Shown: positions 1 to 31,458, counted from the stretch's first letter. The stretch: DNA of 64,000 nt from an uncultured Peptoniphilaceae bacterium (GCA_964432945.1 CAYSPO010000001.1:21506-85505), one strand, 5' to 3'. The notes: generated by a model not told the origin, from the sequence alone. Made by a program: numbers and translations.

Positions 1-825
1 GTAACGGATGGAATACTTATTTATTCTAGAGTAAAAAAATCTTTAGATAGTGAAATTCATATATCTGCAGGTGAAGGTGTTGGAATAATAACAAGAAAAA
101 ATTTATTCGGTGAAATAGGCGATCCAGCTATAAATCCAGTTCCCTTAAAGATGATTAGAAAAGAATTAGAAAATCTTGGTGGTGAACTTAGTGCAGAAAT
201 CTATGTACCAGAAGGTGAGGCTATTGCCAAGAGAACCTTCAATAGTCAATTAGGAATTAAAGGTGGAATTTCAATAATCGGGACTACTGGTTTAGTTAAG
301 CCAATGAGTACAGAAGCCTTGCTAAAAACTATTTACTTAGAAATAGATATGATTGCAGAAGAAAATATAAATAAGGGTATAGCCTTTGTTCCTGGTTCTT
401 ATGGAGAAGAACTTTATAGAAAAAGTAATATAAATCTTCAAGTAGTCAAAGTTTCTAACTATATGGGAGATGCTTTGATGTATGCAGCTAGTCTTGGTTT
501 TAAGAAAGTTGTTATATTTGGTCATGTAGGAAAATTATCTAAATTATCTATAGGAATTTTCAATACCCATAATAGAATTGCCGATGGAAGAAAAGAGTCT
601 TTTATTTATTATCTTGCTTTAGAAGGAGAAAATAAGCAAATTATAAATGCAGTTAATAAAAGCCAATCAGCTGAGCAAATTGTGGAGATTTTACTAGATA
701 AAGGGAAAAAATATATATTTGAAGAAATGAAAAAGGGAATTGAGGAAAGAGTAAAGTCTTACTTAAAGGATTCATCTCTTGATGTTAGTGTTTATATCTA
801 CTCAATGGAAAGAGGATTATTATGA
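1..825 (+). CDS. cbiD: cobalt-precorrin-5B C1-methyltransferase CbiD (5' end outside window)
   Basis: Frame 1 is open from base 1 and continuous with track ORF 151..825. Motifs GEGVGIITRK...AINPVP and IIGTTGLVKPMS are typical of CbiD. The TGA stop overlaps the next ATG (ATGA at 822..825). Confidence 0.85.
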   Translation, partial: VTDGILIYSRVKKSLDSEIHISAGEGVGIITRKNLFGEIGDPAINPVPLKMIRKELENLGGELSAEIYVPEGEAIAKRTFNSQLGIKGGISIIGTTGLVKPMSTEALLKTIYLEIDMIAEENINKGIAFVPGSYGEELYRKSNINLQVVKVSNYMGDALMYAASLGFKKVVIFGHVGKLSKLSIGIFNTHNRIADGRKESFIYYLALEGENKQIINAVNKSQSAEQIVEILLDKGKKYIFEEMKKGIEERVKSYLKDSSLDVSVYIYSMERGLL

Positions 826-2704: not shown

Positions 2705-3683
2705 CATAATTTCATTTACTTCTAGTGGATTTAAAATTGGGAAGAAAATAGAAAATCATTTTGAAAATTGTAAGCATTATTATCATAAAGACTTAGGCGT
2801 AAAAGTTAGCTCTTTAATGAAAGATATATACGAAGAAAGCCAAGCAATAGTTTTTATTTCGGCAACTGGTATAGCTGTTAGAATGATTAGCCCCTATATA
2901 AAGAATAAAAAAGTTGATCCAGCTGTTTTAGTTATAGATGACCAAGGTAGATTTATAATTCCTTTATTTAGTGGTCACTTGGGAGGAGCCAATGAACTTA
3001 GCAAAAAAATTACAGAGCTTTTTCCTAAATCTACACTCGTTATAACTACAGCTTCTGATTCAAGAGGCTTTATAAGTCCTGACTTATTTGTAAAAGATAT
3101 GGGTTTTTATTTTTACAACGAAGAAAAATTAACGGAATTTACTTCGGCCATGGTAGAAGGAGAAAAGATTTATTTATATAGTGAAGTAGAGATTAATTGG
3201 GACTATCCAAACTTTATAAGGATAGATAGTCTTGAAAACATAAAAGATTCTGAAAAACTTATTTATATATCTTCTAGGAAAATTTCAGGGAAATATAATT
3301 ATTTACAAATTATTCCTAAAAATCTCCACCTAGGGATTGGTTGTAGAAGAGGAGTTAGCTCTAAGCTTATGAGAGAGTTTGTTGAAGAAGTATTTAAGGA
3401 TAATAAACTTTTACCAGAGGCTATAGAAAGTATTTCTTCAATAGATCTAAAATCTGATGAGCAAGGAATTTTAGAGTTAGCTAAGAATTACAAAGCTAAA
3501 ACTATTTTTTATAGAACAGAAGAATTACAGGAAGTTGAATATATGTTTGAGATTTCAGAATTTGTAAGAAAAACTGTAGGAACAGGATCTGTGGCAGAAG
3601 CTTCATGCTATTTAACTAGTAAAAATATTATTGTTGATAAAAAAAATGCTCCTAGTATGACGCTCGCTGTAGGGAGGAAATAA
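2697..3683 (+). CDS. cbiG: cobalt-precorrin-5A hydrolase CbiG
   Basis: Two-domain 328-aa protein with a C-terminal LGIGCRRG motif and GTGSVAEA. It lies between cbiF and cbiH. Confidence 0.8.
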   Translation: MISIISFTSSGFKIGKKIENHFENCKHYYHKDLGVKVSSLMKDIYEESQAIVFISATGIAVRMISPYIKNKKVDPAVLVIDDQGRFIIPLFSGHLGGANELSKKITELFPKSTLVITTASDSRGFISPDLFVKDMGFYFYNEEKLTEFTSAMVEGEKIYLYSEVEINWDYPNFIRIDSLENIKDSEKLIYISSRKISGKYNYLQIIPKNLHLGIGCRRGVSSKLMREFVEEVFKDNKLLPEAIESISSIDLKSDEQGILELAKNYKAKTIFYRTEELQEVEYMFEISEFVRKTVGTGSVAEASCYLTSKNIIVDKKNAPSMTLAVGRK

Positions 3684-4426
3684 TGAATAAACTTTATATT
3701 ATAGGTATAGGACCAGGTGGAGCTGGCTCTATGACTTTAGATGCTATTGATAAGATTAAAGAATCGGATGCTATTGTTGCTTATGGCCCATATTTAGATT
3801 ATATAAAAGAAGCTATTGATATTGAAGGAAAAGAAACTTTTACTTCAGGAATGACTAAAGAAATAGAAAGATGTCAAAAGGCAATAGATTTAGCTTTAGA
3901 AGGAAAAACAACTTCTATTCTTTCTACAGGAGATGCTGGTCAATATGGAATGGCAGGTCCCATTTATGAGCTTTTAATTGAACAAGGAAAGATTAATAAA
4001 GTGTGTGTAGAGGTTATTCCTGGTGTTGGAGCTATATATGCAGCAGCTGCAGAAGTTGGAGCTCCGATAATGATGGACCTTGCTTTAATTAGTCTTTCTG
4101 ATTTATTAGTTCCTTGGGAAACAATTGAAAAAAGATTAGATAAGGCAGCAGATGCTGATTTTGTTATAGGAATATACAACCCTAGATCTAAAACTAGAGT
4201 TAAGCATTTACCGAGAGCTTTAGAGATAATAGGGAAATATAGAGATAAGGAAACTCCTGTAGCTTTAGTAAGAAATGCAGGAAGAGATGATACTTATATT
4301 GAATTAAGTAATTTAAATGATTTTGACTATGAAAAAGCTGATATGAAATCCTTGGTTATAGTGGGTAACTCTACAAGTATGATAAAAGAGGGACTGATGA
4401 TTACCAAAAGGGGATACAATATTTGA
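3683..4426 (+). CDS. cbiH: cobalt-precorrin-3B C17-methyltransferase CbiH
   Basis: Has YIIGIGPGG, STGDAGQYGMAG and PGVGAIYAAAA motifs. ATG overlaps the cbiG stop. Confidence 0.9.
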   Translation: MNKLYIIGIGPGGAGSMTLDAIDKIKESDAIVAYGPYLDYIKEAIDIEGKETFTSGMTKEIERCQKAIDLALEGKTTSILSTGDAGQYGMAGPIYELLIEQGKINKVCVEVIPGVGAIYAAAAEVGAPIMMDLALISLSDLLVPWETIEKRLDKAADADFVIGIYNPRSKTRVKHLPRALEIIGKYRDKETPVALVRNAGRDDTYIELSNLNDFDYEKADMKSLVIVGNSTSMIKEGLMITKRGYNI

Positions 4427-5158: not shown

Positions 5159-5836
5159 ATGTATATTCCAATAATGTTAAAAGTAAAAAATAAAAAAGTT
5201 AAAGTTTTTGGGGGAGGGCCTGTTGCTTATAGAAAATCTAAGAAATTTTTAGATGAAGGAGCAGAAGTAACAGTTATAAGCCCTGATTTTATAAAAAAAT
5301 TTGAAGATATAAAAGATTTTTGTATAAAAAGACCTTACAAGAAAAGTGATTTACTAGATATAGATATAGTTATAGCTGCCACTAATGATAGAAATATAAA
5401 CTTAGAAATTTCATCTTACTGCGAGGATAAAGGTATTCTTGTTAATGTTGCAGACTCTAAAGAAGAGTCCAGCTTCATACTACCTTCAAAAATAGATACA
5501 GGTGGTTTAGTAATTTCTTTTTCTACATTAGGAAAATATCCAGCATTATCTAGGTCTTTAAGAATGGAATTAGAAGATAAGTTTTCAATTTATGATAAAG
5601 AATATTTAGATTTATTAGAATTATATAGGCAAAAAATATTAAAAGAAAACCCTGAAAATAAGCTGGAGCTTCTTAGACAGGCACTAACTTATAGTAAGGG
5701 GGAAATTGAAAATTTGCTATATTTAATATTTTATAATATAGATGGGAATGAGGTTAGAATCCTCAGCAGCCCCGCTACTGTATTACTGAGCAAACCTAGA
5801 TATGCCACTGAAAGGGAAGGCCTAGGTAAGCTTTGA
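5159..5836 (+). CDS. precorrin-2 dehydrogenase / sirohydrochlorin ferrochelatase (SirC / CysG N-terminal type)
   Basis: Rossmann motif VFGGGPVAYRKSKKFLDEGAEVTVISP and AATNDRNIN resemble the siroheme-synthase N-terminal domain. The last ~30 codons read into the riboswitch aptamer. Confidence 0.7.
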   Translation: MYIPIMLKVKNKKVKVFGGGPVAYRKSKKFLDEGAEVTVISPDFIKKFEDIKDFCIKRPYKKSDLLDIDIVIAATNDRNINLEISSYCEDKGILVNVADSKEESSFILPSKIDTGGLVISFSTLGKYPALSRSLRMELEDKFSIYDKEYLDLLELYRQKILKENPENKLELLRQALTYSKGEIENLLYLIFYNIDGNEVRILSSPATVLLSKPRYATEREGLGKL

Positions 5837-5870
5837 CGTTAAGCCAGGACACCAGAATTCTTCGGAGGGA
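5735..5870 (+). promoter_or_regulatory. cobalamin (B12) riboswitch upstream of cbiMNQO
   Basis: Conserved blocks are present: GGGAAUGAGGUUAGAAUCCUC, GCCCCGCUACUGUA, GCCACUG, GGGAAGGC, and the B12 box AAGCCAGGACACC. The downstream CUUCUCCU (5882..5889) could pair with the cbiM RBS AGGAGGG (5901..5907). Confidence 0.85.
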
Positions 5871-5911
5871 AGTATATTTACTTCTCCTAGCAAAAATAAT
5901 AGGAGGGAAAA

Positions 5912-6637
5912 ATGAAGAAAAAAGCTAAAAAATTATTAAAAGTTTATGTGTTATTAGCTGTCATTTTATTGCCAACAATGGCAGGAGCTATGCACATAAT
6001 GGAAGGATATCTACCAAAGGTACATTCATTAATTTGGTCATTGATTTCACTTCCATTTGTAATCTACGGTGCAAAGAGTGCATCAAAAGTAACAAAGGAG
6101 TACCCTGATAAAAAGCTATTACTAGCAATGGCAGGTGCTTTTACATTTTTATTATCATCATTAAAAATACCATCAGTAACAGGATCTTGTTCTCATCCAA
6201 CTGGTATAGGTTTTGGAGCAATTATATTTGGGCCAGGACCGATGTTTATAATTGGAGTTATTGTTTTATTATTCCAAGCTTTGTTATTAGCTCATGGAGG
6301 AATTACAACTCTTGGAGCAAATACTTTTTCAATGGCTATTGTTGGTTCTCTAGTTTCTTATGGACTATTTAAGTCACTGAAAAAAACAGGAATAAATGAA
6401 TATGTAAATGTATTTATTGCTGTAACTCTAGGAAATCTTGCAACTTATGCAACAACTGCTCTGCAATTAGCAATAGCTTTTCCAGCAGGAAATTTTGCAG
6501 GTGAATTAGTTAAGTACCTTTCAATATTTGCTCTAACCCAAGTTCCTATTGCAATAGTAGAAGGTTTATTATCTACTTTAATTTATGAAAGAGTTAAGAA
6601 ATATGACGGTGGAGGTTTATTATATGAAAACATCTAG
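5912..6637 (+). CDS. cbiM: cobalt ECF transporter substrate-capture component CbiM
   Basis: After the signal-like N-terminus there is an MHIMEGYLP motif. Polytopic membrane protein, followed by cbiN/Q/O. Confidence 0.9.
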   Translation: MKKKAKKLLKVYVLLAVILLPTMAGAMHIMEGYLPKVHSLIWSLISLPFVIYGAKSASKVTKEYPDKKLLLAMAGAFTFLLSSLKIPSVTGSCSHPTGIGFGAIIFGPGPMFIIGVIVLLFQALLLAHGGITTLGANTFSMAIVGSLVSYGLFKSLKKTGINEYVNVFIAVTLGNLATYATTALQLAIAFPAGNFAGELVKYLSIFALTQVPIAIVEGLLSTLIYERVKKYDGGGLLYENI

Positions 6638-6908
6638 TAAGGTAATAATTATAATTTTAATCCTAGCAATTATAATTGCTCCGCTTTATCTGCTTCCAGA
6701 TGCAGATTTCGAAGGAGCAGATGATGAAGGTATGGACACTCTTGCTGAAAATAACCCAGAATATGAAGCATGGGCAGAACCATTTATTGAACCAGCTAGT
6801 GGGGAAATAGAATCACTTTTATTTGCCAGCCAAGCAGCTCTAGGAGCATCTGTAATTGGATATTATTTTGGAGTAAGTAAAGGTAAAAGAAATGTTGAAG
6901 ATAGATAA
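6624..6908 (+). CDS. cbiN: cobalt transport protein CbiN
   Basis: Small two-TM protein. I prefer ATG 6624, preceded by GGAGG, over the track start 6585. Confidence 0.8.
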   Translation: MKTSSKVIIIILILAIIIAPLYLLPDADFEGADDEGMDTLAENNPEYEAWAEPFIEPASGEIESLLFASQAALGASVIGYYFGVSKGKRNVEDR

Positions 6909-7569
6909 ACTTGCCTATGAGAATAATTTATTTAAAATTAGGCCAAGTTTAAAAGTGGGCATGAGTATGTTATTACTCATGCTCTCTATTATTATAGACA
7001 ATAATTTTATTAAGTTTAATATAGTATTATTAAATATTTTAGTTTGTATAGTTTTTGCTAAAATTCCTTTTTTAGAATATTTGAAGTTATATAGAATACC
7101 TTTAGTTTTTCTTATATTAGGTCTGGTTAGTATGATTTTATCAATAAGTAAAGACAACAGGGACTATATATTTTCCTTTAATGTTTTTAATTTTTATCTT
7201 GGAGTCTCTGAGAATTCTCTGATTAATGGATTTAACACTTTTATTAGGTCTATTTCAGCATTAAGTTCTACCTATTCTTTGATATTAACTACTCCAATTA
7301 ACCAGCTTATTAATTTTCTGAAATCCATAAAATTTCCTATTATAATTACTGAACAGCTACTGCTTATATACAGATTTATAAATGTATTTTTAGAAGAACT
7401 AGAAAAAATGAAAATAGCAATGGAGTTAAAGCAAGGATATGGTAAAAAGAAAAATTGGATAAAAAGTCTTTCTCTTATAGGAAGTTCATTGTTTATAAAA
7501 ATAATGAATTCTTTTAAGGATTATTCTTTAACACTTGAACTTAAACACTTTAATGGAGACTTTTATTAG
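6892..7569 (+). CDS. cbiQ: cobalt ECF transporter T component CbiQ
   Basis: Polytopic membrane protein of about 225 aa between cbiN and the ECF ATPase. Overlaps the cbiN end. Confidence 0.8.
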   Translation: MLKIDKLAYENNLFKIRPSLKVGMSMLLLMLSIIIDNNFIKFNIVLLNILVCIVFAKIPFLEYLKLYRIPLVFLILGLVSMILSISKDNRDYIFSFNVFNFYLGVSENSLINGFNTFIRSISALSSTYSLILTTPINQLINFLKSIKFPIIITEQLLLIYRFINVFLEELEKMKIAMELKQGYGKKKNWIKSLSLIGSSLFIKIMNSFKDYSLTLELKHFNGDFY

Positions 7570-7577
7570 GTGATTTT

Positions 7578-8393
7578 ATGATAGAGATTAAAAACTTGTG
7601 CTTTAAATATGACAATGGATATGAAGCTTTAAAAAATATTAATATGGAAATTAAAGAAGGACAAATTATCGGACTTATTGGAGAGAACGGATCTGGTAAA
7701 TCAACTCTTTTCCTTTCTATCCTAGGAATTAACAAAAAATCTCAAGGTGATATTTTATTCAGAGGTGAAAGTATCTCTTACAAGAAAACTTTTATGAGAG
7801 ATTATAGAAAAAAAGTAAATATGGTATTGCAAGATCCAGACAAACAAATATTTTATTCTGATGTCTATTCAGATATAGCCTTTGGACTTAAAAATTTAGG
7901 ATTAAGCGATAATGAGATTAAAAAAAGAGTAAATTCATCTTTGGAAGATTTAGAAATAAGTAATTTGAAAGATAAGGCTGTTCATTACTTAAGCTATGGC
8001 CAAAAGAAACGGCTTACGATTGCAGGGGTATTAGCTATGAATCCAGAGCTTATTCTATTAGATGAGCCTACAGCAGGCCTAGACCCTAGGCTTACCAAAC
8101 AGATGGTTAAAACCATTAAAAAATTAAAAGATAATAGTAAAACTATTTTAGTTTCATCTCATGATATGGATTTTATTTATGAAGTTTGTGACTATATATA
8201 TGTTATCAATAAAGGACAAATTATTAGTAATGGAAAGCCAGAAGAAGTTTTTATAGATGAAGAAAAAATTATATCTGCAGGTTTAAGTTTACCAATGTTA
8301 GTTAAACTCCATGTTAATACAAATTTACCTCTTTTTAAAGATGAAGATAGACTTTATAAATATATAAATAAATATAAAAATAATAATCAGTAA
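7578..8393 (+). CDS. cbiO: cobalt ECF transporter ATPase CbiO
   Basis: Walker A GENGSGKST, signature LSYGQKKR, Walker B LILLDEPTAGLD. Confidence 0.85.
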   Translation: MIEIKNLCFKYDNGYEALKNINMEIKEGQIIGLIGENGSGKSTLFLSILGINKKSQGDILFRGESISYKKTFMRDYRKKVNMVLQDPDKQIFYSDVYSDIAFGLKNLGLSDNEIKKRVNSSLEDLEISNLKDKAVHYLSYGQKKRLTIAGVLAMNPELILLDEPTAGLDPRLTKQMVKTIKKLKDNSKTILVSSHDMDFIYEVCDYIYVINKGQIISNGKPEEVFIDEEKIISAGLSLPMLVKLHVNTNLPLFKDEDRLYKYINKYKNNNQ

Positions 8394-8545: not shown

Positions 8546-8665
8546 TCTTATAAAATTTATCAAAGAATTATTGTAATATATTACTTGCGTGGTAAATTAA
8601 AACAATATATCACTATTATATTAAGAATAAAAAGGTTTATATGTAAAAATACAAGAGGTGAAAAA

Positions 8666-9832
8666 ATGAAAAAAGGATTAATATTAACTTTATTATCATT
8701 TGTTTTAGTTTTTTCAGTAGGTTGTAATCAAACAACAGAAACTGAAGCTACAACTGAAGGAAATAAAGAAGTAGCAGAAACTACCGAAGCTACAACTGAA
8801 GAAGAAAAAGTAACACAAACTGAAGAAGTTTCAGAAACAGAAGAATCTGAAGAAGAAGAAACTGAAAAAGTTTGGCCAGAAGAATTAAAAGGTAAACTAA
8901 CTTTTGAAGTGGATCTTTCAAAACACGAATCAGATAAACCAGTTCGCCTATGGCTACCAGCAGCTCAGTCAGATGAATATCAAGAAATTTCTAATGTTGA
9001 AGTAGTAGTTGATGAACAAACAGCTACAACACAAACAAATAAAGATGACTTAGGAAATGAAATGATATACATTGAATTTTCTCCTGAAGCTAAAGAACGT
9101 AAAGCAATATATTCTTTTGACCTAGTTAGAAAAGAAATCAAAGCTCCTAAATTTGCTGAAGAAGAAGATTTTGATGCAGCAGAATATGAAGAATATCTTT
9201 CATCATCTAACCTAATGCCTTTAGATGGTAAAATTAAAGAACTTTCTGATGAAATAACAAAAGGAAAAGAAACAGTAGAAGATAAGGCTTTAGCTATCCA
9301 CGAATGGATTTTTGAAAATATGGTTCGTAATGATGATGTAACAGGATGTGGTCTAGGAGATGTGGAAAGCACATTAGTATCTTTAGATGGTAAATGTACT
9401 GATATTGGATCAGTTAATATAGCATTATTAAGAGCTGCAGGAATACCAGCAAGAGAAATATTTGGTGTTCGTTTGAAAGACGAATCAGGCGTTTCTGATG
9501 TTACTAAAAGCCAACACTGTTGGGTTGAATATTATCAACCAGGAACAGGCTGGGTAACAACAGATGTTGCAGATGTTCTAAGAGCTGTTCTATATGAAGA
9601 TTTAGAAAAAGATGGAGATAAAGCACAAGAAATAAAAGAATTCTACTTTGGAAATCTAGATGCTGTTCGTGTTGGATTAACAACAGGAAGAGATTTAACT
9701 TTAGTTCCAGAACAAGAAGCTCCATTTGTAAATCAATTTGGCTACCCATATGCTGAAGTTGATGGAGAACCTCTTGATTTCTATAATTCTGAAGAATTCG
9801 CATACAGCATAACTTTTGAAAAAGCTGAATAA
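8666..9832 (+). CDS. transglutaminase-like lipoprotein
   Basis: ATG 8666 gives a signal peptide plus lipobox (LVFSVGC). An acidic T/E-rich linker follows. Cys-His-Asp core GKCTDIGS...QHCWVEYY...GWVTTD matches the transglutaminase-like fold. Confidence 0.7.
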   Translation: MKKGLILTLLSFVLVFSVGCNQTTETEATTEGNKEVAETTEATTEEEKVTQTEEVSETEESEEEETEKVWPEELKGKLTFEVDLSKHESDKPVRLWLPAAQSDEYQEISNVEVVVDEQTATTQTNKDDLGNEMIYIEFSPEAKERKAIYSFDLVRKEIKAPKFAEEEDFDAAEYEEYLSSSNLMPLDGKIKELSDEITKGKETVEDKALAIHEWIFENMVRNDDVTGCGLGDVESTLVSLDGKCTDIGSVNIALLRAAGIPAREIFGVRLKDESGVSDVTKSQHCWVEYYQPGTGWVTTDVADVLRAVLYEDLEKDGDKAQEIKEFYFGNLDAVRVGLTTGRDLTLVPEQEAPFVNQFGYPYAEVDGEPLDFYNSEEFAYSITFEKAE

Positions 9833-9855
9833 TCCTAAAAAAATCTAAAATATTA

Positions 9856-9889
9856 AACCACCTAGATTTAGGTGGTTTTTCTTTTTTTA
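9856..9889 (+). terminator. rho-independent terminator
   Basis: AACCACCTA-GATT-TAGGTGGTT stem-loop followed by TTTTCTTTTTTT. Confidence 0.7.
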
Positions 9890-10072: not shown

Positions 10073-10576
10073 ATGGATCTTAAAAAGCTAAAAATTAAAA
10101 ATATATTACTAGTTATATTTGCTATAGGAGTGTTATATATAGGATTTACCAGCTTTAATACTGGAACAGAAGATGACGTAGTGGATATAGGTGTATCTGA
10201 AGATAATGAATTATTGAAGTATTTTAGAAAAAGCTATCCTGATTATGAGGTTCTCAAAGCTGGTGAAGAAGATGTAGATGCAAATGGATTTAATGATCTA
10301 GTTGTTATTTATAATATTTCAAGAGATAAGCTAGGTTACCCTACAAAAAACGAAATGTTAGTTATATTAAATAATAATGGTGTTTATGAAATGACTCAAT
10401 CTACAAGAGCACCTATTGAAAAACATGTAATACAGTTTCAAAACATTGAAAATGATGATAGGTATGAAATAACAGTCTCTGGTTCAAAAAGAGGGCAATA
10501 TGGTTTTGGTATATATGAAATAAAAGACAATGCTCTTGTGAATATATATGGTGAAGGAATGGAAAAATGCTGATAG
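10073..10576 (+). CDS. membrane-anchored protein ending in Cys-Sec-COOH (TGA 10571..10573 read as selenocysteine, real stop TAG 10574..10576)
   Basis: Has an N-terminal TM helix. It is a paralogue of 15355..15897, and both end ...GEGM(E/D)xC with the identical hexamer context TGC-TGA-TAG. A hairpin follows in the 3' UTR. This may correspond to the family I recall being named 'Cys-Cys-COOH (seleno)protein SaoC'; I cannot verify that here. Confidence 0.7.
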
Positions 10577-10585
10577 AAAATATGT

Positions 10586-10602
10586 ATGCTTAGGATAAGC
10601 AT
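10586..10602 (+). promoter_or_regulatory. candidate SECIS hairpin (3' of TGA 10571)
   Basis: ATGCTTA-GGA-TAAGCAT, starting 15 nt after the TGA. The apical loop contains GG. Confidence 0.5.
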
Positions 10603-10650
10603 GAATAAGAAAACTTTATATAAGAATAAAAAATTAAAATGATACAATCG

Positions 10651-10681
10651 TTGGGTTAAAGTCGACTTTAATGTTTATACT
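10651..10681 (+). promoter_or_regulatory. MerR-type promoter/operator P1
   Basis: TTGGGT (-35), a 19-nt spacer, then TATACT (-10). The perfect 16-bp palindrome TTAAAGTCGACTTTAA (10656..10671) lies inside the spacer. Confidence 0.6.
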
Positions 10682-10696
10682 TAGAAGGAGGTGAAT

Positions 10697-11248
10697 ATGA
10701 TGAAAATCAAAGATGTAAGTGAATTGACAGGTTTAGCTGGATCCACTATAAGATATTATGATAGCTTAGGACTATTAGGTCCTATAGATAGATTATCAAA
10801 TAATTATAGAAAATTCAATAAACATGATGTAGATATACTTAATTTTATCTCTGAGTCTAGAGATCTTGGTTTTTCTCTTGCCGAAGTTAAAGAAATTTTG
10901 CAAATGAAAAATAGCGGTAAAGAGCCATGTGCGTATGTTGAGAATAAGATTAAGGAAAAAATTACCTTAATAGATGAACATATAAAAGATTTGGAAAAGA
11001 AAAGAGTTGAACTTAACAAGCACTTAGAAATTGGACATTCTGTTTGTGGTTGTCATGGTAATGTTTGTCATTATATTGAAGGCTTAGTTGGAGTAGAAGA
11101 GGAGGATTCATCGACTTGTTCCTGTGGGTGTGAAGAAGAAATAGAGAAATCATCAGGATGTTCTTGTGGATGTGAAGAAGAAACTGAGTTAGACAATTCT
11201 TGTTCATCAAAGAATTCTTCTAAAAACAAGGGTTGTAGCTGCTGTTAG
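10697..11248 (+). CDS. MerR-family metal-responsive transcriptional regulator with a Cys-rich C-terminal tail
   Basis: HTH MKIKDVSELTGLAGSTIRYYDSLGLL. Cys residues in EPCAY and VCGCHGNVCH sit at positions comparable to the three metal-ligand cysteines of MerR. The tail has SCGCEEE repeats and ends GCSCC. Start is ATG 10697 or 10700, after AAGGAGG. Confidence 0.85.
   Translation: MMKIKDVSELTGLAGSTIRYYDSLGLLGPIDRLSNNYRKFNKHDVDILNFISESRDLGFSLAEVKEILQMKNSGKEPCAYVENKIKEKITLIDEHIKDLEKKRVELNKHLEIGHSVCGCHGNVCHYIEGLVGVEEEDSSTCSCGCEEEIEKSSGCSCGCEEETELDNSCSSKNSSKNKGCSCC
11117..11188 (+). repeat. tandem 42-nt-period coding repeat (CSCGCEEExE twice) in the regulator tail
   Basis: TGTTCCTGTGGGTGTGAAGAAGAAATAGAG (11117..11146) and TGTTCTTGTGGATGTGAAGAAGAAACTGAG (11159..11188). 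Confidence 0.8.
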
Positions 11249-11279
11249 GCTGAATTACTTATCTTACCTATAGAAAGTT

Positions 11280-12080
11280 GTGATTATGGGAAAAATAAAG
11301 ATAGAGAATTTCAGAAATTTTATCAATTTATTTTTAATAGCTATAATTATTGGACTATCTATAATAATTTTTAAAAATAATAATCCAAAAATAAAAGAAA
11401 ATAATAATAAGCCTGTAATCAGAATTGGTGCAGGTGATGATATATCAGGAATTGTTCTTGACTATATGCAGTCAGAAACTAATGAATTTAAGTTAGAACC
11501 TTATTTTATCAAAGATTGCTGAGCGACTACTTCTCAATGGGCATTGAGTAGTAATGCGTATTCTATGGCAATTGTTTGTAAAGATGCTGCAAAAAAGTAT
11601 ATAGACACAAGTCCTGATTTTGAAATTATAGGACCTGTAATTATGAATTCAGACATAGTTTTAGAGTCGACTAGAGATATTACAAGTGTAGGTATTACAA
11701 GTAAGAAAAGTTATCACAGAGATTTTGTTCGTGAATTATATGGTGAAGATGTTGAAATTATTGAGCTTATGCCTCAAAGTTTGCCATATGTTTATGAAAC
11801 AGCAAGAGTCGATGCAATAATAACTGATATAACAAAATTTACGAGTAACATAAAAGGAGAAGTGAAAAGTCCTAGTCAGGAAGATTATGTAACAAATATT
11901 TTAATAGCAAGAAGTGATTTTATTGGAACTAAAGAATATAAAGATTTTGTTAATAAATATAATGAAATCGTAAATGAACTAAATTCTGAAGGTCTTCCTA
12001 TTGATTATATAGAGAAAAAAACAAATTTAGATGAAGGGAGTTATGAGTATTGGAAAGTAAAGCTACTAACAATAAAGTAG
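11280..12080 (+). CDS. membrane-anchored ABC substrate-binding-like selenoprotein (Cys-Sec at TGC-TGA 11517..11522)
   Basis: Track ORFs 11280..11522 and 11544..12080 are in the same frame, separated only by the TGA and 7 sense codons. Joined length is about 266 aa with an N-terminal TM anchor. It lies directly upstream of the cognate permease and ATPase. A hairpin follows the TGA. Confidence 0.65.
11528..11553 (+). promoter_or_regulatory. candidate SECIS hairpin (3' of TGA 11520)
   Basis: TACT/AGTA plus CTCAAT/ATTGAG stems with one T-T mismatch. Apical loop is GGGC. Confidence 0.5.
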
Positions 12081-12847
12081 TCTCATTTTTTCAAGATGAG
12101 ACTACCAAACATACATTAGCAAGATTACTTACATATGGAACACTCATTTTAGTTTGGCATCTTTTAGCCACTTATATCGATATACCACTTGTTTTGCCCG
12201 CTCCATTAGATACATTAAGGGCTTTTATAGACAGTATCATCGATATTAAAGTTATGAGCAATGTTGGTATAACTTTAATGAGAGTTCTAAAGGGATGGGG
12301 ATTAGCCTTAGTCTTTGGAATACCTATCGGTATTGCAATGGGATTATCTCCTATTTTTGACAGTGTTTTTGGAGGTATAGTTAACTCTTTAAGACAAGTG
12401 CCAATGATGGCTTGGGTACCTCTTTCAATTATTTGGTTTGGAATTGGTGATGGTCCAACGTTATTTATGATTGCACTAAATGGAGTTTTCCAAATCATTA
12501 TGAATACATCTTCAGGTGTGGCTAATATTTCTGAAGATTATTATAATGCAGCCAAAAGCATGGGTGCTAGTAAACTAAGTATCTTTAAGAACATTATTAT
12601 CCCAGCAGCTCTACCAGATATGTTAACTGGAGCAAGATTAGCCATTGGAGCTGGCTGGATGTCTGTTATCTGAGCGGAGTTCATTGCGACAAGTGCCGGG
12701 CTCGGCTACGAAATGATAGAAGCACAATCTATGATGCAAACTAATAAACTTATAGCGTTAATGTTTTTAGCAGCATTTATAGGGTTTTTAATTGACAATG
12801 TAATACAATTTCTAAATAAGAAATTAACAAAATGGAGATATGTATAG
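12050..12847 (+). CDS. ABC transporter permease (NitT/TauT-SsuC type) with in-frame TGA 12671..12673 read as selenocysteine
   Basis: TTG start 9 nt after GAAGGGAG. After the TGA, 57 further sense codons (AEFIATSAGLGYEMIEAQ...LMFLAAFIGFLIDNVIQ...) run to TAG 12845..12847. They align residue-for-residue with the C-terminus of the paralogue at 30608..31453 (VAAEMLPGSMSGLGYLIAHA...IICIGLIGALFDAIYS). The next gene starts at 12848. Confidence 0.75.
12693..12709 (+). promoter_or_regulatory. candidate SECIS hairpin (3' of TGA 12671)
   Basis: A locally GC-rich hairpin, GTGCCG-GGCT-CGGC(T)AC, in an otherwise AT-rich gene. The loop contains GG. Confidence 0.45.
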
Positions 12848-13633
12848 ATGAAATTAGTTGTTGATAATTTATGTAAATCTTATTCGAATTCAGGAGAAGA
12901 TAATCATGTTTTAGAAAATATTAGCTTTTCAGTTGAAGAAGGAGAGGTTGTAACCCTTTTAGGTCCATCAGGATGTGGAAAGACAACAACTTTAACTATT
13001 ATAGCAGGTTTCAATGATTATGATTCAGGTCAAGTTTTATTAAATGGAGAATTAACAGACAAACCAGGTCCTAATAAGGGTTTTATGTTTCAAAACTATG
13101 CATTATTTCCTTGGATGACGGTAGAAGAAAATATTCGCTTTCCAATGAAGCAATTAAAATATGATAAAGAAAAAATCGATAAAAGAACTAAGTATTTATT
13201 AGATCTGGCTAGGTTGACTAAATACAAGGATTATTACCCTCATCAAATATCTGGGGGTATGAAACAAAGAAATTCTTTGGTGAGAGCATTAGCTCTTGAG
13301 CCAGAAATTTTATTGATGGATGAACCTCTTGGGGCTTTAGATATTGAAATGAGACAAAGTCTTCAAGATCAATTATTAGAAATATTTGATGATCTAAAAT
13401 TAACAGTAATAATAGTAACCCATGATGTGGAAGAAGCAATTTACTTGAGCGATAGAGTAATACTTATGTCCACAAATAAGGGTGAGATTATTTTGAACGA
13501 AAAAATAACTATGCCTCACCCAAGAAAAAGAAAAGATCCTCAATACCAACAATATGTAGATTTGTTATCAGAAAAGTTTATAGAAGCAAGTAAAAAAGGA
13601 GCACAAGCTCAAGGAAGTAGTGAAGATGAATAG
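12848..13633 (+). CDS. ABC transporter ATP-binding protein (NitT/TauT family)
   Basis: Walker A GPSGCGKTT, signature ISGGMKQR, Walker B LLMDEPLGALD. Confidence 0.9.
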   Translation: MKLVVDNLCKSYSNSGEDNHVLENISFSVEEGEVVTLLGPSGCGKTTTLTIIAGFNDYDSGQVLLNGELTDKPGPNKGFMFQNYALFPWMTVEENIRFPMKQLKYDKEKIDKRTKYLLDLARLTKYKDYYPHQISGGMKQRNSLVRALALEPEILLMDEPLGALDIEMRQSLQDQLLEIFDDLKLTVIIVTHDVEEAIYLSDRVILMSTNKGEIILNEKITMPHPRKRKDPQYQQYVDLLSEKFIEASKKGAQAQGSSEDE

Positions 13634-14270
13634 TAAAATAGATATTTCAGAAGTTCTTACACATGAAGATAATTTAACTTCAGATGAAAAGTTTTATAGA
13701 TTAAAAATTGTAGAAAAACTGGCAACAGAAGATAGACCTATTAGATTAAATGAGCTTCCAGAAATAAGCTCTCAAATGTATGAAATTCTCCACGACAAAG
13801 GAGCTATTGTATTAGATGAAAATAAAGAAAATATAATGTATGCTTACCCTGTTTCAGGGCCGCATACAAACCATGAAATTCATTTGGCAGATGGCAGGGT
13901 CTTTCATTCTATGTGTGCTATAGACTCTCTTGGCTCTACTTTTACCTTTGGACAAGATTTAACTATAAAATCTCAGTGTTCTACCAGTGGAAAAGAAGTT
14001 ATTGTAGAAATAGAGAATGGAAAAATTAAATCTACAAATGCTGATGATATTTATGCTATTCATGTTGATTTAAATGCATTTGAAGAATGGTCAGCTAGCT
14101 GCTGAAATGTTATGAATTTTTTCCGTGGGAAAGAAAACATGATTGAATATTACGAAGGAAATGAACTTGACGAAAAGACTAGCTTTGGTCTTGATTTAGA
14201 TACAGCATTTAAAGTAGGAAAAAAAGTTTTTAGTGTTGAACATACCTTATATGAATTTGTAGTTAAGTAA
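13620..14270 (+). CDS. organomercurial-lyase (MerB) family selenoprotein (Cys-Sec at TGC-TGA 14100..14105)
   Basis: FHSMCAIDSL matches MerB YAWCALDTL (Cys96/Asp99). SASC-U-NVMNFF matches MerB SFCCHVHFF (Cys159/Cys160). Reading through the TGA adds 54 codons to TAA 14268..14270, giving 216 aa, which is MerB-like length. Start is GTG 13620 or ATG 13626. Confidence 0.75.
14112..14140 (+). promoter_or_regulatory. candidate SECIS hairpin (3' of TGA 14103)
   Basis: ATG..TTTTTTCC-GTG-GGAAAGAA..CAT imperfect hairpin with a G-rich apex. Confidence 0.4.
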
Positions 14271-14281
14271 GGAGGGATTGG

Positions 14282-15352
14282 ATGTTTTTGTCATATATTA
14301 AAGAAATTTTACTCGCTTCATTAGATTTACTTAACGGTACATCCGCTTGGCTTATTGCAAGTTACCTTTTAGCAGGACTTACAAGAGATATAATTTCACC
14401 AGCTAGGCTGCAAAAGTCTTTAGGGAATACAAAAATATCCTCTATTATAAAATCTACATTACTAAGTATGTGTTTACCTGTATGTAGCTGTGGATCAGTT
14501 CCCTTAGGTATAAGTATGTATGAATCAGGGGCTTATGTCGGGCCAACCTTAGCATTTTTTGCAGGCTCTCCTATCTTAAATCCAGCTTCAATTATTTTGA
14601 GCTTTGGTTTGTTAGGTAAAGAAATCACTCTTATAAATATTGGAGCAGGTTTAATTTTACCTATTATAATCGGAGTTTTGGGAAATAAATTAGCTGGCGA
14701 TGAGCTTATGGATACCAAAATTCAAAAAGAGATAGAAAATATTAAAATTGAAAAAGATGAAAGATCTATTTTCTCAAAAATGAAATCAGGACTTAAATGG
14801 GTAAATAGTGAATTTGCTGTTAATTCTAGCAAATATATAGTTTTTGGTATGCTTTTTGGAGGGTTTTTATTAGTATCTTTTCCTCAAGCATTTATTCAAA
14901 AATATCTCGGTGATCCGGGAGTTATGACACTTTGGAATGTTGCACTTCTGGCTACTCTTATGTATGTATGTGCAGTAGGGCATATTCCTTTTATTGCAGC
15001 TTTGATAGCTAGTGGGGCATCCCCTGGAGCAGCTATAACATTTTTAATGGCAGGAGCAGCAACAAATATTCCAGAAATTATAAGTATAGGATCAATGATT
15101 GGTAAAAAAACAGCAGCCATCTATACTATTGTAATTAGTTCATTTTCTATGCTTGTAGGTATGATTACAAACAAGTTATTAATGCCTGGGTTTCAAAGGC
15201 AAATTGAATATGATGAAGTTGATAAAGCTATAAATACTGCTAATAGTCTTTTATTAAGTTTTCCTGATTGGGTTAAAAACTTATGTACTGCTATTGTAAT
15301 AATTTATTTTCTAAAGGCAATGTATAATTCTTTAATTAGAGATAGGATTTAA
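14282..15352 (+). CDS. polytopic permease, DUF318/ArsP-like family, CxC motif
   Basis: About 10 TM segments in a two-repeat architecture. Motif LPVCSCGSVPLG. Paralogue of 18162..19256 and more distantly of 46081..47121 (FCSCSSIP). Good RBS AGGAGGG. Confidence 0.8.
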   Translation: MFLSYIKEILLASLDLLNGTSAWLIASYLLAGLTRDIISPARLQKSLGNTKISSIIKSTLLSMCLPVCSCGSVPLGISMYESGAYVGPTLAFFAGSPILNPASIILSFGLLGKEITLINIGAGLILPIIIGVLGNKLAGDELMDTKIQKEIENIKIEKDERSIFSKMKSGLKWVNSEFAVNSSKYIVFGMLFGGFLLVSFPQAFIQKYLGDPGVMTLWNVALLATLMYVCAVGHIPFIAALIASGASPGAAITFLMAGAATNIPEIISIGSMIGKKTAAIYTIVISSFSMLVGMITNKLLMPGFQRQIEYDEVDKAINTANSLLLSFPDWVKNLCTAIVIIYFLKAMYNSLIRDRI

Positions 15353-15354
15353 CT

Positions 15355-15897
15355 ATGATTAATCTAGATAGGGAAAAGAGAATTATAAATATTTATTATA
15401 AGGAAAAGCTAGTTTTAACAATAGACGCAAGCTTAATGACTAAATTTTTTCTTACAGTAATAGTTATTCTAGTTGGTTATATAGGCTATATTCAAAACGC
15501 TAGTTTTAAAGAAGCAGATTTTGGAGTTGAAAAAGATAATCCACTTTTACTTTATTTTGAAGAAGAATTTCCTAATAATCCTGTTATCAAATGTAAATTA
15601 GGTGATGTAAATAACGATGGTAGAGATGATTTAATAGTTATTTACCAAATGCAGTTTCAAGATGGTAATGAATTGCGAGTGGTCTTTGATACAGATAATG
15701 GATATGAAGTTTCTAATCAAAATAGAGCTCCTTATGAAAACCAAACTATTGAATTAATTGATATAGATAATTCTCCTCCTATGGAATTTATTGCATCTGG
15801 CTCTAAAAGAGGAAGATATGGCTATGAGATTTATAGGGTTGATAATTCTACTCAGTTAGCCAGCGTCTTTGGAGAGGGAATGGATGTGTGCTGATAG
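15355..15897 (+). CDS. membrane-anchored protein ending in Cys-Sec-COOH (TGA 15892..15894 read as Sec, stop TAG 15895..15897)
   Basis: Paralogue of 10073..10576. They share blocks DVNNDGRDDLIVIY / DANGFNDLVVIY, SGSKRG(R/Q)YG and GEGM. Same TGC-TGA-TAG ending, with a downstream hairpin. Confidence 0.7.
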
Positions 15898-15906
15898 GTT
15901 TATAAA

Positions 15907-15922
15907 AAGTTCAGGTGAGCTT
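15907..15922 (+). promoter_or_regulatory. candidate SECIS hairpin (3' of TGA 15892)
   Basis: AAGTTC-AGGT-GAGCTT hairpin 13 nt after the TGA. The loop contains GGU. Confidence 0.45.
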
Positions 15923-15970
15923 ATATATAAGAAAATCTTATCCATTATAAATTAGCATAAGTAAATATTA

Positions 15971-16003
15971 TTAGACTATAAAGACGACTTTATAGTTTAT
16001 AAT
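15971..16003 (+). promoter_or_regulatory. second MerR-type operator/promoter P2
   Basis: ACTATAAAGACGACTTTATAGT (15975..15996) has core TAAAGACGACTTTA, matching 13 of 14 positions of the P1 core TAAAGTCGACTTTA. Its centre lies at the same distance from a -10 hexamer (TATAAT 15998..16003) as in P1. It could also fold as an RNA hairpin. Confidence 0.55.
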
Positions 16004-16075
16004 AATATTATGATATTGAGTATATATATATTCAACAAATAATGTTATACATAGGTAAAACTTTTAGGAGGAAAT

Positions 16076-17329
16076 ATGAAAAAGAAAGTATTAGCAAGCA
16101 TATTAGCTTGTACTCTTATTCTTTCATCTTTTACTGCTTGTAAAAACTCTGGAACATCATCTGTAGAAAAAATCGAATATGATCCTGTAGCAGAGCTTGA
16201 AAATTTCGAATTAAGAGAAATACCAGAAGCAGATAAAGATTTCAAAATTGAGATGGGCTATAATAACTGTGACCATATGGTTGGAGCTATTATAGGGGAA
16301 GAAGCAGGAATTTATGACGCTTTAGACTTAAATGTAAATGTAACTCAAACTAACAATACAAACATAGCTCAAGCCATGTCAACTAATGAAATGCAAGTTG
16401 GTTATATGGGAATTGACGGAGCAATAAGATCTCACAATGAAGGAGCACCTCTATTTATGAGTGCTGCAAATCATATTGGTGGATCAAGATACTTAGTAGC
16501 TTCTAATGATATTAAAAAGCCAGAAGATTTAATTGGTAAAACATTAGGAATTTCTCAAGATACAGCGAATAACCCAGAATGGTTACAATGGGCAAAAGAA
16601 TTAGGAATTCCAGCAGAAGCTGAAAACTATGAAATAGTAGAAATAGCACAAAAAGATGGACCTTTAGCTTTAAAAGCAGGACAAATAGATGCATTCGCTT
16701 GCTGTGATCCGTTTGCTTCACAATCAGAGCTTATGGAAGTTGGCCACATTATGGCAATAGGTTGGGGAACTGATGTAGAACAAGCTGAAAGTAATGATGC
16801 ATGGGGCATGTGCTGTATACATGCTATGAACCAAAACTTTGAAAAAGAACATCCAGAACTAGCTCAAAGACTTATGGTAGCTCATATATTAGCAGTTCAA
16901 TACTTATATGAACATCCATACAATGCGGCTATGATGTTTGCTGAAGGGTTTGGGACAACACCAGAAGTTGGTTTATTAACAGTATATATGAAGACTGTTG
17001 CTGAAGGTAGAACAATAACTTGGGAATTTGATGAAGAAAACCTTAAAAACTTCGTAAAAGAGTATGAAGATTGGAATGTTGATCCAGAGAAAATTCCTGA
17101 TTTAAGTAAAATAGAATCATTTATGGGTAAAAATATGCTTGAAGAAAGCAATATTATGCACTTTGAGGATTACCTAGAAGAATCAAATTTAGATGAAGTA
17201 TTCCCACTTGGAATGCCATTTGAAGATTGGTTAGCGAAAGCTAAAGCAATAGATGGTATTGATAATGAAATGGGTAATGATATTAAAGTTCCAGAAATTT
17301 ACCAAGAACAAGGATACTCAGCTAACTAA
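16076..17329 (+). CDS. ABC substrate-binding lipoprotein (NMT1/SsuA-like, NitT/TauT family)
   Basis: Signal peptide plus lipobox SSFTAC. About 417 aa and SsuA/NMT1-like (...GQIDAFACCDPFASQ...). Strong RBS AGGAGG. Confidence 0.75.
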   Translation: MKKKVLASILACTLILSSFTACKNSGTSSVEKIEYDPVAELENFELREIPEADKDFKIEMGYNNCDHMVGAIIGEEAGIYDALDLNVNVTQTNNTNIAQAMSTNEMQVGYMGIDGAIRSHNEGAPLFMSAANHIGGSRYLVASNDIKKPEDLIGKTLGISQDTANNPEWLQWAKELGIPAEAENYEIVEIAQKDGPLALKAGQIDAFACCDPFASQSELMEVGHIMAIGWGTDVEQAESNDAWGMCCIHAMNQNFEKEHPELAQRLMVAHILAVQYLYEHPYNAAMMFAEGFGTTPEVGLLTVYMKTVAEGRTITWEFDEENLKNFVKEYEDWNVDPEKIPDLSKIESFMGKNMLEESNIMHFEDYLEESNLDEVFPLGMPFEDWLAKAKAIDGIDNEMGNDIKVPEIYQEQGYSAN

Positions 17330-17340
17330 AAAATTAAAAT

Positions 17341-17369
17341 AATAGGATCATTTATGATCCTATTATTTT
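17341..17369 (+). terminator. rho-independent terminator
   Basis: AATAGGATCA-TTTA-TGATCCTATT followed by ATTTTG. Confidence 0.6.
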
Positions 17370-17466
17370 GTTATTATCAATTAGTATAAGAAATTTTTAT
17401 GATAAAGAATGATTATGCTTAATGAAATTAAACTATGCTAAAATATAGTAAGTAAGAGGAGTGTGT

Positions 17467-17730
17467 ATGAGAGATAAGGTTTTAGTGGAATTTATCAACA
17501 CTTGACCTAGTTGTGATTCACTTGGCAGGTCGGTTCAAGAAGTAGCATCACAATTTGGAGATAAGGTCGAGGTAAAGCTTTATTTCGCAGGAAAAGATGT
17601 TGAATATATTGCCAAATATGGAATGATATATTCAGGGACGATGATAATTAATGAAACTAAAAAAGTACAAAGACTTAGCAGATCTAATATTGAAAAAGAA
17701 ATTAGGGCTGCAGTAGAAGAAATTCAGTAA
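17467..17730 (+). CDS. small thioredoxin-fold selenoprotein with UxxC motif (TGA 17503..17505); not in the ORF track
   Basis: ATG 17467 follows AGAGGAG. Translation is MRDKVLVEFINT-U-PSCDSLGRSVQEVASQFGDKVEVKLYF...GTMIINE...EEIQ, 87 aa, stop TAA 17728..17730. It aligns with the CxxC protein at 45731..46069 (ILGSGCAKCKQLE...). A long hairpin follows the TGA. Confidence 0.7.
17511..17553 (+). promoter_or_regulatory. candidate SECIS hairpin (3' of TGA 17503)
   Basis: Outer stem TTGTGAT/ATCACAA and inner stem CTTG/CAAG. The apical region is GCAGGUCGGUU, which contains GGUC. Confidence 0.5.
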
Positions 17731-17747
17731 AATATTGGAGGTATTTA

Positions 17748-18080
17748 ATGAGAGTTGCTTACGTAATGGGTTCAGAAAATGCTAGAAAGACAGTTAGAGA
17801 TATGATAGTTCCACAAATGGAAGCAAGGGAACATGTTGCAGAAGTTGTAGCAATGTTTTTTACATATGACACAACTTTTATGCTGTTAAAAGATACTGAT
17901 CTTGGAAATAGACTTCAAAAGTTAGCTGATGAAAAAGGCTTGATGATAGTTGCTTGTGACCAATGTGTTATTGAAAGGGAAATTGATGATAAGCTTATTC
18001 CTGCAGCAAGTTTAGGATGCTTTCCAATGGTTTATGGAGCATTAAATAGTGCAGATATAGACCAAGTTATATCCATCTAA
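17748..18080 (+). CDS. DsrE/DsrF-like sulfur(selenium)-relay family protein
   Basis: 110 aa with a DsrE-like pattern (MRVAYVM..., IVACDQCV active-site-like Cys). RBS GGAGG. Confidence 0.6.
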   Translation: MRVAYVMGSENARKTVRDMIVPQMEAREHVAEVVAMFFTYDTTFMLLKDTDLGNRLQKLADEKGLMIVACDQCVIEREIDDKLIPAASLGCFPMVYGALNSADIDQVISI

Positions 18081-18098
18081 TCGGATTAATGTACTTGA

Positions 18099-18140
18099 AA
18101 TAAGCATCAATCTTAAATTAGATTGATGCTTATTATTTTT
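18099..18140 (+). terminator. rho-independent terminator
   Basis: 15-bp stem AATAAGCATCAATCT / AGATTGATGCTTATT followed by ATTTTT. Confidence 0.7.
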
Positions 18141-18161
18141 GCGAAATATGAGAGGTGAGAA

Positions 18162-30401: not shown

Positions 30402-30538
30402 TTAGCAAGTTATATAATAATAAATTTTTAAATTTCTTATTATATTTTTAGCTTATAGAAATAAGTTCATATTAAAAATAATAGGTATTTATTATAAGAA
30501 AATATGGTTTTGGTAAGGGTATAGAATAATATGTTAGG

Positions 30539-30570: not shown

Positions 30571-30607
30571 TATTGAATAAGATAAGGTAGGGGTTGAAGA
30601 AATATAT

Positions 30608-31453: not shown

Positions 31454-31458
31454 ATAAT

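Follow-up and report, generated by a model that had tools for sequence, protein, structure and literature searches.

We analyzed a stretch of 64,000 nucleotides (nt) from an uncultured Peptoniphilaceae bacterium (GCA_964432945.1 CAYSPO010000001.1:21506-85505; the whole stretch is called the window hereafter), focusing on two paralogous genes that both end with TGC-TGA-TAG and lie in a locus belonging to the SAO, or selenocysteine-assisted organometallic, system. The two genes, SaoC1 and SaoC2, very probably encode SAO proteins with selenocysteine (Sec) as the terminal residue: UGA would be read as Sec through a 3' selenocysteine insertion sequence (SECIS) element, and the resulting thiol-selenol tail, presumably located outside the cytoplasm, would serve organometal handling.

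The SAO system and the SaoC family were defined by Haft & Gwadz (bioRxiv 10.1101/2022.07.06.499078), who found that nearly all SaoC proteins end with Cys-Cys and that 3/52 present a single Cys with a UGA-UAG double stop. The authors described a 7-bp stem with a GGU loop after UGA-UAG, "as expected for a SECIS element in Gram-positive species," and read these SaoC as Cys-Sec-COOH selenoproteins, pointing out that PGAP cannot annotate a C-terminal Sec. More recently, a 2026 review listed SaoC as a CU selenoprotein. The Cys-Sec-COOH reading is thus the rediscovery of a published family, curated with a hidden Markov model (HMM); since the phenomenon is already present in the literature and in NCBIfam, no new category is opened.

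Compared to that work, which included three Sec forms among 52 species, the set of Sec-type SaoC is much larger here (27/83 distinct contexts), and the window locus carries two diverged Sec-form SaoC paralogues together with two SaoE genes. Also new are the quantitative controls and the covariation for an untranslated SECIS, the strict linkage to loci with Sec-form SaoB, SaoL, and SaoP, and the finding of loci with two Sec-type SaoC paralogues. With 27 Sec-type contexts, 15 covarying hairpins, and strict Sec co-occurrence, the comparative case is stronger than that of the original three examples.

Two SaoC genes ending with Cys-TGA-TAG

The features on which the analysis is centered are the following:
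10073..10576, + strand: SaoC paralogue 1 (166 amino acids plus a predicted Sec), family NF040734; presumed true stop TAG at 10574-10576
10571..10573, + strand: UGA, predicted Sec codon and last residue of SaoC1, aligned to the final position of the family profile, which is otherwise Cys
10585..10603 (core 10586-10602), + strand: predicted SECIS hairpin of SaoC1, wholly 3' of the stop codon
15355..15897, + strand: SaoC paralogue 2 (179 amino acids plus a predicted Sec), family NF040734; presumed true stop TAG at 15895-15897
15892..15894, + strand: UGA, predicted Sec codon and last residue of SaoC2, on the same basis as in SaoC1
15907..15922, + strand: predicted SECIS hairpin of SaoC2, AAGTTC-AGGT-GAGCTT

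The SaoC1 open reading frame (ORF; 10073..10573, 166 amino acids) has the C-terminus ...GEGMEKC, with TGC at 10568-10570, TGA at 10571-10573, and TAG at 10574-10576. Likewise, the SaoC2 ORF (15355..15894, 179 amino acids) ends with ...GEGMDVC, and its TGC-TGA-TAG occupies 15889-15897. The two proteins share 36% identity over 156 amino acids (E = 2e-31), coherently with the original prediction, made from the sequence of the window, which had described them as diverged paralogues with the same ending. Both exceed the 80-bit cutoff of the NCBIfam model NF040734, "Cys-Cys-COOH (seleno)protein SaoC" (136.7 bits for SaoC1 and 145.3 bits for SaoC2), with alignments spanning positions 4-147 out of 148, exactly the last position being absent. 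When a Cys was appended at the TGA position of SaoC1, the match became complete (4-148/148, 141.9 bits). The two ORFs belong to the SaoC family by their HMM scores, by the motif at the C-terminus, and by the operon around them.

The original prediction had argued that, if TGA were the stop, nothing would conserve the TAG behind it. The argument is weaker than it was put: two of the 27 homologues with Cys-TGA (see below) have TAA instead of TAG, and tandem stops are common in this AT-rich window (30% GC), where 13/59 ORFs of at least 120 amino acids present a second in-frame stop directly after the first. Thus, the TAG after the TGA is, by itself, weak evidence, and the case rests on the family-wide comparison. 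As regards stop usage, the same 59 ORFs end with TAA in 32 cases, TAG in 17 (83% for these two codons), and TGA, the rarest, in 10, four of which are Sao genes.

C-termini, 3' hairpins, and Sec usage across the SaoC family

A total of 83 distinct SaoC C-terminal DNA contexts were obtained from a scan of GTDB genomes (38 true loci), from metagenomes (80 loci), and from contig look-ups. Among them, 27 have Cys-TGA-stop, 52 Cys-Cys-stop, and four Cys-Cys-X-stop. In other words, the codon at the final family position is TGY in 56/83 and TGA in 27/83, with no other codon or residue, and a single Cys followed by TAA or TAG was found in 0/83 contexts. These are the endings that the original prediction had expected from such a tabulation. 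In the Cys-TGA forms, the second stop is TAG in 25/27 and TAA in 2/27 (loci L125 and L056): the conserved feature is an immediately following stop, not TAG itself.

TAG after the Sec codon (25/27) can be compared with the 28/52 Cys-Cys forms that end with TAG, TAA being the commonest stop in the window. This excess may be explained by shared ancestry, the TGA forms belonging to two clades (see below); an alternative would be a preference for a codon read only by release factor 1 (RF1) after a UGA read by release factor 2 (RF2).

At the protein level, a search retrieved 32 relatives, most of which end with a single C, four with CC or CCN, and several with "CW." At the DNA level, the "CW" entries (P0011, P0014, and P0020) are TGC-TGA-TAG read by a gene caller set to genetic code 4. 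This exposes an annotation gap: a terminal Sec is invisible to standard gene callers, and in the collection searched, the genes are listed as single-Cys or "CW" proteins.

The hairpins indicated by the original prediction were found at exactly the positions it gave, with a spacing from the TGA that is 12 nt in our count for both genes. The SaoC1 hairpin (ATGCTTA-GGA-TAAGCAT, 10586-10602) has 7 bp, or 8 when a U-G pair is included, and RNAfold places it inside a −6.8 kcal/mol fold computed for the 45-60 nt after the UGA. The SaoC2 hairpin (AAGTTC-AGGT-GAGCTT, 15907-15922) has 6 bp, one of which is G-U; the SaoC2 orthologue in locus L120 presents AGGCTA-GGTT-TAGCCT at the same place.

When the 3' regions were aligned with MAFFT, the Lachnospiraceae-type hairpins were shifted against the others, as there is no sequence shared among the stems; thus, we carried out an alignment-free census, with the Cys-Cys-type contexts and shuffled sequences as controls. 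To be counted, a hairpin had to have 6 bp or more in the stem, no more than one of them G-U, and 3-5 nt in the loop, and the first loop position had to fall at nt 19-27, counted from the U of UGA. Such a hairpin is present in 27/27 TGA forms against 6/56 Cys-Cys forms and 5% of the shuffles (Fisher p = 2e-16 for the enrichment, uncorrected for phylogeny). Furthermore, the hairpins of all 27 TGA forms have stems of 6-8 bp, loops of 3-4 nt starting at nt 20-24 from the UGA, and a G in the first two loop positions; among the six Cys-Cys contexts with a qualifying hairpin, one has such a G-containing loop.

The TGA-form hairpins comprise 15 distinct stem-loop sequences, with three to five canonical pair types at each of the six loop-proximal pairs; examples of stems are ATGCTTA/TAAGCAT, ATACTTC/GAAGTAT, AGGCTA/TAGCCT, TTGCTTC/GAAGCAA, TTACTTG/CAAGTAA, GATTAGA/TCTAATC, and ATCTGCC/GGCAGAT. 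The stem, therefore, covaries in the test that the original prediction had proposed. The SECIS hairpins of two other genes of the window served as internal controls: their loops, GGGC in SaoB and GUG in SaoL, are also rich in G and equally distant from the UGA (nt 20-26).

In the Lagierella/Parvimonas-type loci (L001-L007, L040, and L126-L128), about 10-45 nt after the SaoC TGA, the 3' arm of the hairpin, CAAGTAA, is directly continued by the GGAG ribosome-binding site of a merR-like gene located downstream. An extended pairing between a T-run and GGAG could sequester this ribosome-binding site, and the arrangement hints at a coupling of Sec decoding or termination to the translation of the regulator.

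Sec usage in SaoC is correlated with that in the rest of the locus. Where the neighbors were captured, the loci with a TGA-type SaoC have the Sec form of SaoB in 15/15 cases, of SaoL in 18/18, and of SaoP in 13/13; the loci with a Cys-Cys-type SaoC show mixed Sec use in the other Sao proteins. In the neighbor-joining tree, the TGA forms fall into two clades, one Lachnospiraceae-like and one Peptoniphilaceae/Tissierellia-like, the latter including both window paralogues, which by parsimony implies two switches between Cys and Sec. Both paralogue lineages retain the TGA-stop and the hairpin at protein identities as low as about 35%, with fully diverged flanking 3' sequence. The support is thus one of long-term retention, including across a gene duplication, rather than of many independent origins.

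Protein architecture, proposed mechanism, and alternative readings

Each protein has one hydrophobic segment, at residues 11-29 in SaoC1 and 25-43 in SaoC2. The N-terminal flank of the SaoC1 segment carries four Lys/Arg versus one Asp/Glu, and the C-terminal flank six Asp/Glu and no Lys/Arg; in SaoC2, the N-terminal flank has five Lys/Arg versus four Asp/Glu, and the C-terminal one is near-neutral. Basic N-terminal flanks around a single segment suggest an N-in, C-out orientation, which argues for an extracytoplasmic C-terminal tail. Most SaoC members are said to have a lipobox Cys (10.1101/2022.07.06.499078); unlike them, both window copies lack it, so the N-terminal segment, which may be a signal anchor or a cleaved signal peptide, is taken to be more likely an uncleaved anchor. 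SaoC1 has no Cys besides the C-terminal one.

The AlphaFold2 model (predicted local distance difference test, pLDDT, 86) shows a membrane helix followed by an all-beta domain of about 120 residues. Foldseek against the PDB returned weak matches to propeller blades of DDB1 and integrin alpha (E about 0.03, template modeling score 0.37-0.44), which gave no functional lead. The Pfam FG-GAP model PF01839 scored 19.3 bits on SaoC2, under its gathering score of 22.1, and had no hit on SaoC1. The loop resembling DxNxDGxxD that had been noticed in the two sequences is present in both, as D84-x-N-x-D-G-x-x-D92 in SaoC2 and D67-x-D-x-N-G-x-x-D75 in SaoC1. Across 24 homologues, it follows the pattern D-x-[ND]-x-[DN]-G-x-x-D, with D84, G89, and D92 (SaoC2 numbering) invariant. 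The loop resembles that of integrin/FG-GAP-type repeats, and this fits the weak propeller matches and the sub-threshold Pfam hit.

In the mechanism that we propose, UGA would be the last sense codon, and SelB with Sec-tRNA(Sec) would be recruited by a minimal SECIS beyond the coding region, made of a 6-8 bp stem that starts about 10-12 nt after the UGA and a G-containing loop of 3-4 nt. After the insertion of Sec, the ribosome would terminate at the next codon (UAG, rarely UAA), giving a product that ends with ...Gly-Glu-Gly-Met-x-x-Cys-Sec-COOH; when insertion fails, release at the UGA would give a protein one residue shorter. The single N-terminal segment would place the all-beta domain outside the cytoplasmic membrane, where the flexible C-terminal thiol-selenol pair could act as a soft-metal or organometal ligand, receiving or handing over the SAO substrate at the outer membrane face. 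The likeliest partners would be SaoE, the gene of which nearly always precedes that of SaoC, and two binding proteins, SaoX and SaoB. A selenol-thiol claw at the membrane surface, as also imagined in the original prediction, is the same hypothesis as that of Haft & Gwadz (10.1101/2022.07.06.499078).

Several points weigh against this reading. The 27/27 counts are not independent events, as the TGA forms derive from only two clades, and the SaoC2 hairpin is the weakest of the set and is not the minimum-free-energy fold of its 45-nt context. In E. coli, a U after UGA makes a strong termination context, and much of the product may end at the Cys. Among the larger ORFs of the 64-kb window, we found no selA, selB, or selD, and no tRNA-Sec was found, so the Sec-decoding trait is deduced only from the other genes with an in-frame TGA. 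An Rfam scan (E up to 10) matched no SECIS family to the SaoC hairpins; it also missed the SaoB, SaoL, and SaoT sites and is thus uninformative for short bacterial SECIS elements. Metal binding and the partnership with SaoE are suggested only by motif analogy and gene order. Finally, no experimental proof of selenium in SaoC was found in the literature searched, and the source paper calls its own model "highly speculative."

The most serious alternative, which we consider improbable, is that TGA is a plain stop, so that the proteins end with a single Cys, the tandem TAG is incidental, and the hairpin is a terminator or an mRNA-stabilizing element. The frequency of tandem stops, the small number of TGA clades, and the lack of experimental evidence for Sec in SaoC speak for it, as does the use of TGA as an ordinary stop elsewhere in the window (e.g., 151..825, 3683..4426, and 51976..53598). 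Nevertheless, whenever the second Cys is absent, the codon is TGA (27/27) and never TAA or TAG, despite TGA being the rarest stop of the window. As for the hairpins, we rejected them as Rho-independent terminators: both are devoid of a T-tract and were not called, whereas true terminators were called at 9855-9878, 17335-17370, and 18099-18134. Moreover, in Lagierella-type loci, the ribosome-binding site and the ATG of the next gene lie within about 10 nt of the hairpin. The spacing, the G-containing loop, and the covariation match a SECIS, and such hairpins are nearly absent after Cys-Cys forms; furthermore, TGA forms are confined to loci whose other Sao proteins all have the Sec form. Taken with the Cys/TGA alternation, these observations support the claim of the original prediction that UGA is followed directly by the real stop in a Cys-Sec-COOH protein.

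A refinement of the terminal-Sec reading, to which we give a similarly small chance, is that UGA-UAG is a purposeful selenium-dependent switch between ...Cys-COOH and ...Cys-Sec-COOH forms of different ligand affinity. With Sec as the last residue, a failed recoding costs a single residue, the immediate second stop gives a clean end either way, and the family tolerates Cys at the final position (56/83 contexts). However, the data do not separate a designed switch from ordinary inefficient Sec insertion, and no member has TAA or TAG right after a single Cys, so an end with one bare Cys is apparently not a selected state. On the same line, it is conceivable, although rather unlikely, that the terminal Sec with its second stop is an adaptive "fail-soft" design, in which selenium supply tunes the affinity or reactivity of an extracellular partner of SaoE and SaoX for metal/organometal hand-off. 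With the same reserve, both SaoC copies would keep such a switch, the first of them opening the locus, before the uptake genes, and the second coupled to SaoE. Possibly, the partial-propeller domain with its Ca-type loop oligomerizes, presenting several selenol-thiol claws.

Reassignment of TGA to Trp or Gly (genetic code 4 or 25) can be practically dismissed: it is suggested by the database homologues ending with "CW," which reflect the code used by the gene caller, whereas TGA ends ordinary conserved genes of the window, every in-frame TGA aligns to Cys in homologues and not to Trp or Gly, and the closest relatives found are Bacillota (Peptoniphilaceae, Lagierella, and Parvimonas), which are not known to depart from the standard bacterial code.

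The terminal-Sec reading has a close parallel in the DUF466 proteins of Campylobacter and Helicobacter ("KCU-star"; Genome Biol Evol 2015, PMC4607533), for which a carboxy-terminal Cys-Sec followed by TAA or TAG and a downstream SECIS was first described, in 2015, and which also have Cys-Cys homologues. In light of this precedent, the original remark that a SECIS outside the coding sequence is unusual for bacteria is fair, but the arrangement is not unique to SaoC. DUF466 proteins differ in having about 70 amino acids and in being encoded beside pyruvate uptake transporters (CstA family; 10.1101/2022.07.06.499078), while SaoC has an exported beta domain of about 120 residues and lies in a metal/organometal locus. 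Pfam and NCBIfam scans of SaoC1 and SaoC2 gave no DUF466 match; with no detectable homology, the likeness is one of analogy only.

As far as it is described in PMC4607533, the minimal SECIS of E. coli fdhF (Liu et al. 1998) resembles the SaoC hairpin: both are short apical hairpins, a few nt after the UGA, and have a conserved G in the loop. The fdhF element is within the coding sequence and is translated, whereas the SaoC hairpin is wholly untranslated, and the loop sequence and bulged-U details of E. coli are not conserved. The minimal fdhF element is reportedly 17 nt long with an 11-nt spacing, values close to those of the SaoC hairpin, of about 17-18 nt and starting about 10-12 nt after the UGA. 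The SECIS elements of archaea and eukaryotes likewise stand in the 3' untranslated region (UTR), but they act at a distance, through a kink-turn type structure and other factors; the SaoC hairpin keeps the strict bacterial spacing from the UGA and is in the 3' UTR for the sole reason that no sense codon comes after the UGA.

At the functional level, and only by analogy, the tail recalls the Gly-Cys-Sec-Gly of mammalian thioredoxin reductase and the Cys-Cys of MerA, in that a flexible C-terminal tail carries a Cys next to Sec or to another Cys. In these enzymes, such a pair is a redox or metal-transfer arm. Their folds and Sec-insertion machinery are unrelated to those of SaoC, and in thioredoxin reductase, the Sec is penultimate, followed by Gly, and depends on a eukaryotic 3' UTR SECIS with SBP2.

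The SAO locus and the wider window

The two SaoC genes are part of a complete SAO locus at 10073..19256, in which all nine families (SaoA, B, C, P, L, E, X, T, and D) were found. The other genes of the locus are:
10691..11248, + strand: MerR-family (CueR/CadR/MerR-like) regulator
11280..12080, + strand: SaoB, predicted substrate-binding selenoprotein; in-frame TGA at 11520-11522, motif DC-U-ATT; NF040727, 214 bits when read through (cutoff 140)
12050..12847, + strand: SaoP, predicted permease selenoprotein; in-frame TGA at 12671-12673; NF040733, 375.9 bits when read through (cutoff 295)
12848..13633, + strand: SaoA, ATP-binding cassette (ABC) ATPase; NF040729, 355 bits, slightly under the cutoff of 360 (E = 1.9e-106)
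13620..14270, + strand: SaoL, predicted MerB-like lyase selenoprotein; in-frame TGA at 14103-14105, motif SC-U-N, with 54 further in-frame codons behind it
14282..15352, + strand: SaoE, efflux permease; NF040736, 485 bits; ends 2 nt before SaoC2
16076..17329, + strand: SaoX, substrate-binding lipoprotein, Cys form with CC motifs; NF040735, 459.9 bits
17467..17730, + strand: SaoT, predicted thioredoxin-like selenoprotein; in-frame TGA at 17503-17505, motif U-P-S-C; NF040730, 125.4 bits (cutoff 65)
17748..18080, + strand: SaoD, DsrE-related protein; NF040732, 161.9 bits, slightly under the cutoff of 169
18162..19256, + strand: second SaoE, efflux permease; NF040736, 506 bits

Four of these neighbors (SaoB, SaoP, SaoL, and SaoT) present an in-frame TGA, and the homology to their families extends on either side of it. 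The gene order SaoE, SaoC, (MerR), SaoX is kept in 37/38 genome loci, and the position of SaoC directly after SaoE and ahead of SaoX points to a partnership in function at the outer membrane face. In the related loci L001-L007, L120, L123, and L126, SaoC is likewise followed by a MerR-like gene. With six Sec codons in seven selenoprotein-capable genes and two SaoC copies, the locus would be well suited to a first experiment on a C-terminal Sec and on a bacterial SECIS that is fully untranslated. Within the SAO system, the SaoC proteins are the sole components at the membrane surface to which no activity has been assigned.

In the metagenomic loci L123, L125, and L129, SaoX was called as two ORFs (e.g., 211 + 167 amino acids), a split compatible with SaoX being there in its rarer Sec form; unlike these split calls, the SaoX of the window is the uninterrupted Cys form. 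Directly upstream of SaoC1, the gene at 8585..9832 encodes a lipoprotein-like product of 415 amino acids with an acidic linker rich in Thr and Glu and a transglutaminase core (PF01841, 77 bits); no SAO family matches it, and the terminator at 9855..9878 separates its gene from SaoC1.

Downstream of the locus, two double-cubane-cluster anaerobic reductases (26423..27595 and 32316..33485, both on the − strand; NF040772, about 490 bits each) enclose a C-S lyase of the PatB type together with a second ABC transporter without in-frame stops (29160..32232), which has an SsuA/NMT1-type binding protein and a SaoP-like permease. An association of double-cubane reductases with SAO loci has been described in the literature. 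The same non-Sec ABC triad is found upstream of SaoC in L120 and L125. Next to this group, the ORF at 25437..26093 was evaluated against the model of the two-Sec selenoprotein MduS and rejected as a selenoprotein: it scored 224.8 bits against a cutoff of 380, matching the N-terminal methyltransferase domain only (214/338 positions). Its frame does not continue past the stop, so it is a Sec-less, domain-only relative.

Elsewhere in the window, a cobalamin riboswitch at 5695..5874 (Rfam, 77.8 bits, above gathering) precedes a CbiM/CbiQ/CbiO cobalt energy-coupling factor (ECF) transporter (5912..8393), and another at 49062..49234 (50.6 bits, also above gathering) precedes a run of MtaA/CmuA-type methyltransferase genes. 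The cluster at 44515..56924 comprises at least four homologues of the MtaA/CmuA family (methylcobamide:coenzyme M type) and a RamA/AcsV-like corrinoid reductive activase (51976..53598). In addition, a third, distant SaoE/SO_0444-like permease is encoded at 46081..47121 on the − strand (116 bits, below cutoff), and a homologue of the TIGR04282-family "arsenosugar biosynthesis glycosyltransferase" at 58698..60185; these two genes add to the hints of a genomic region devoted to metal or metalloid chemistry.

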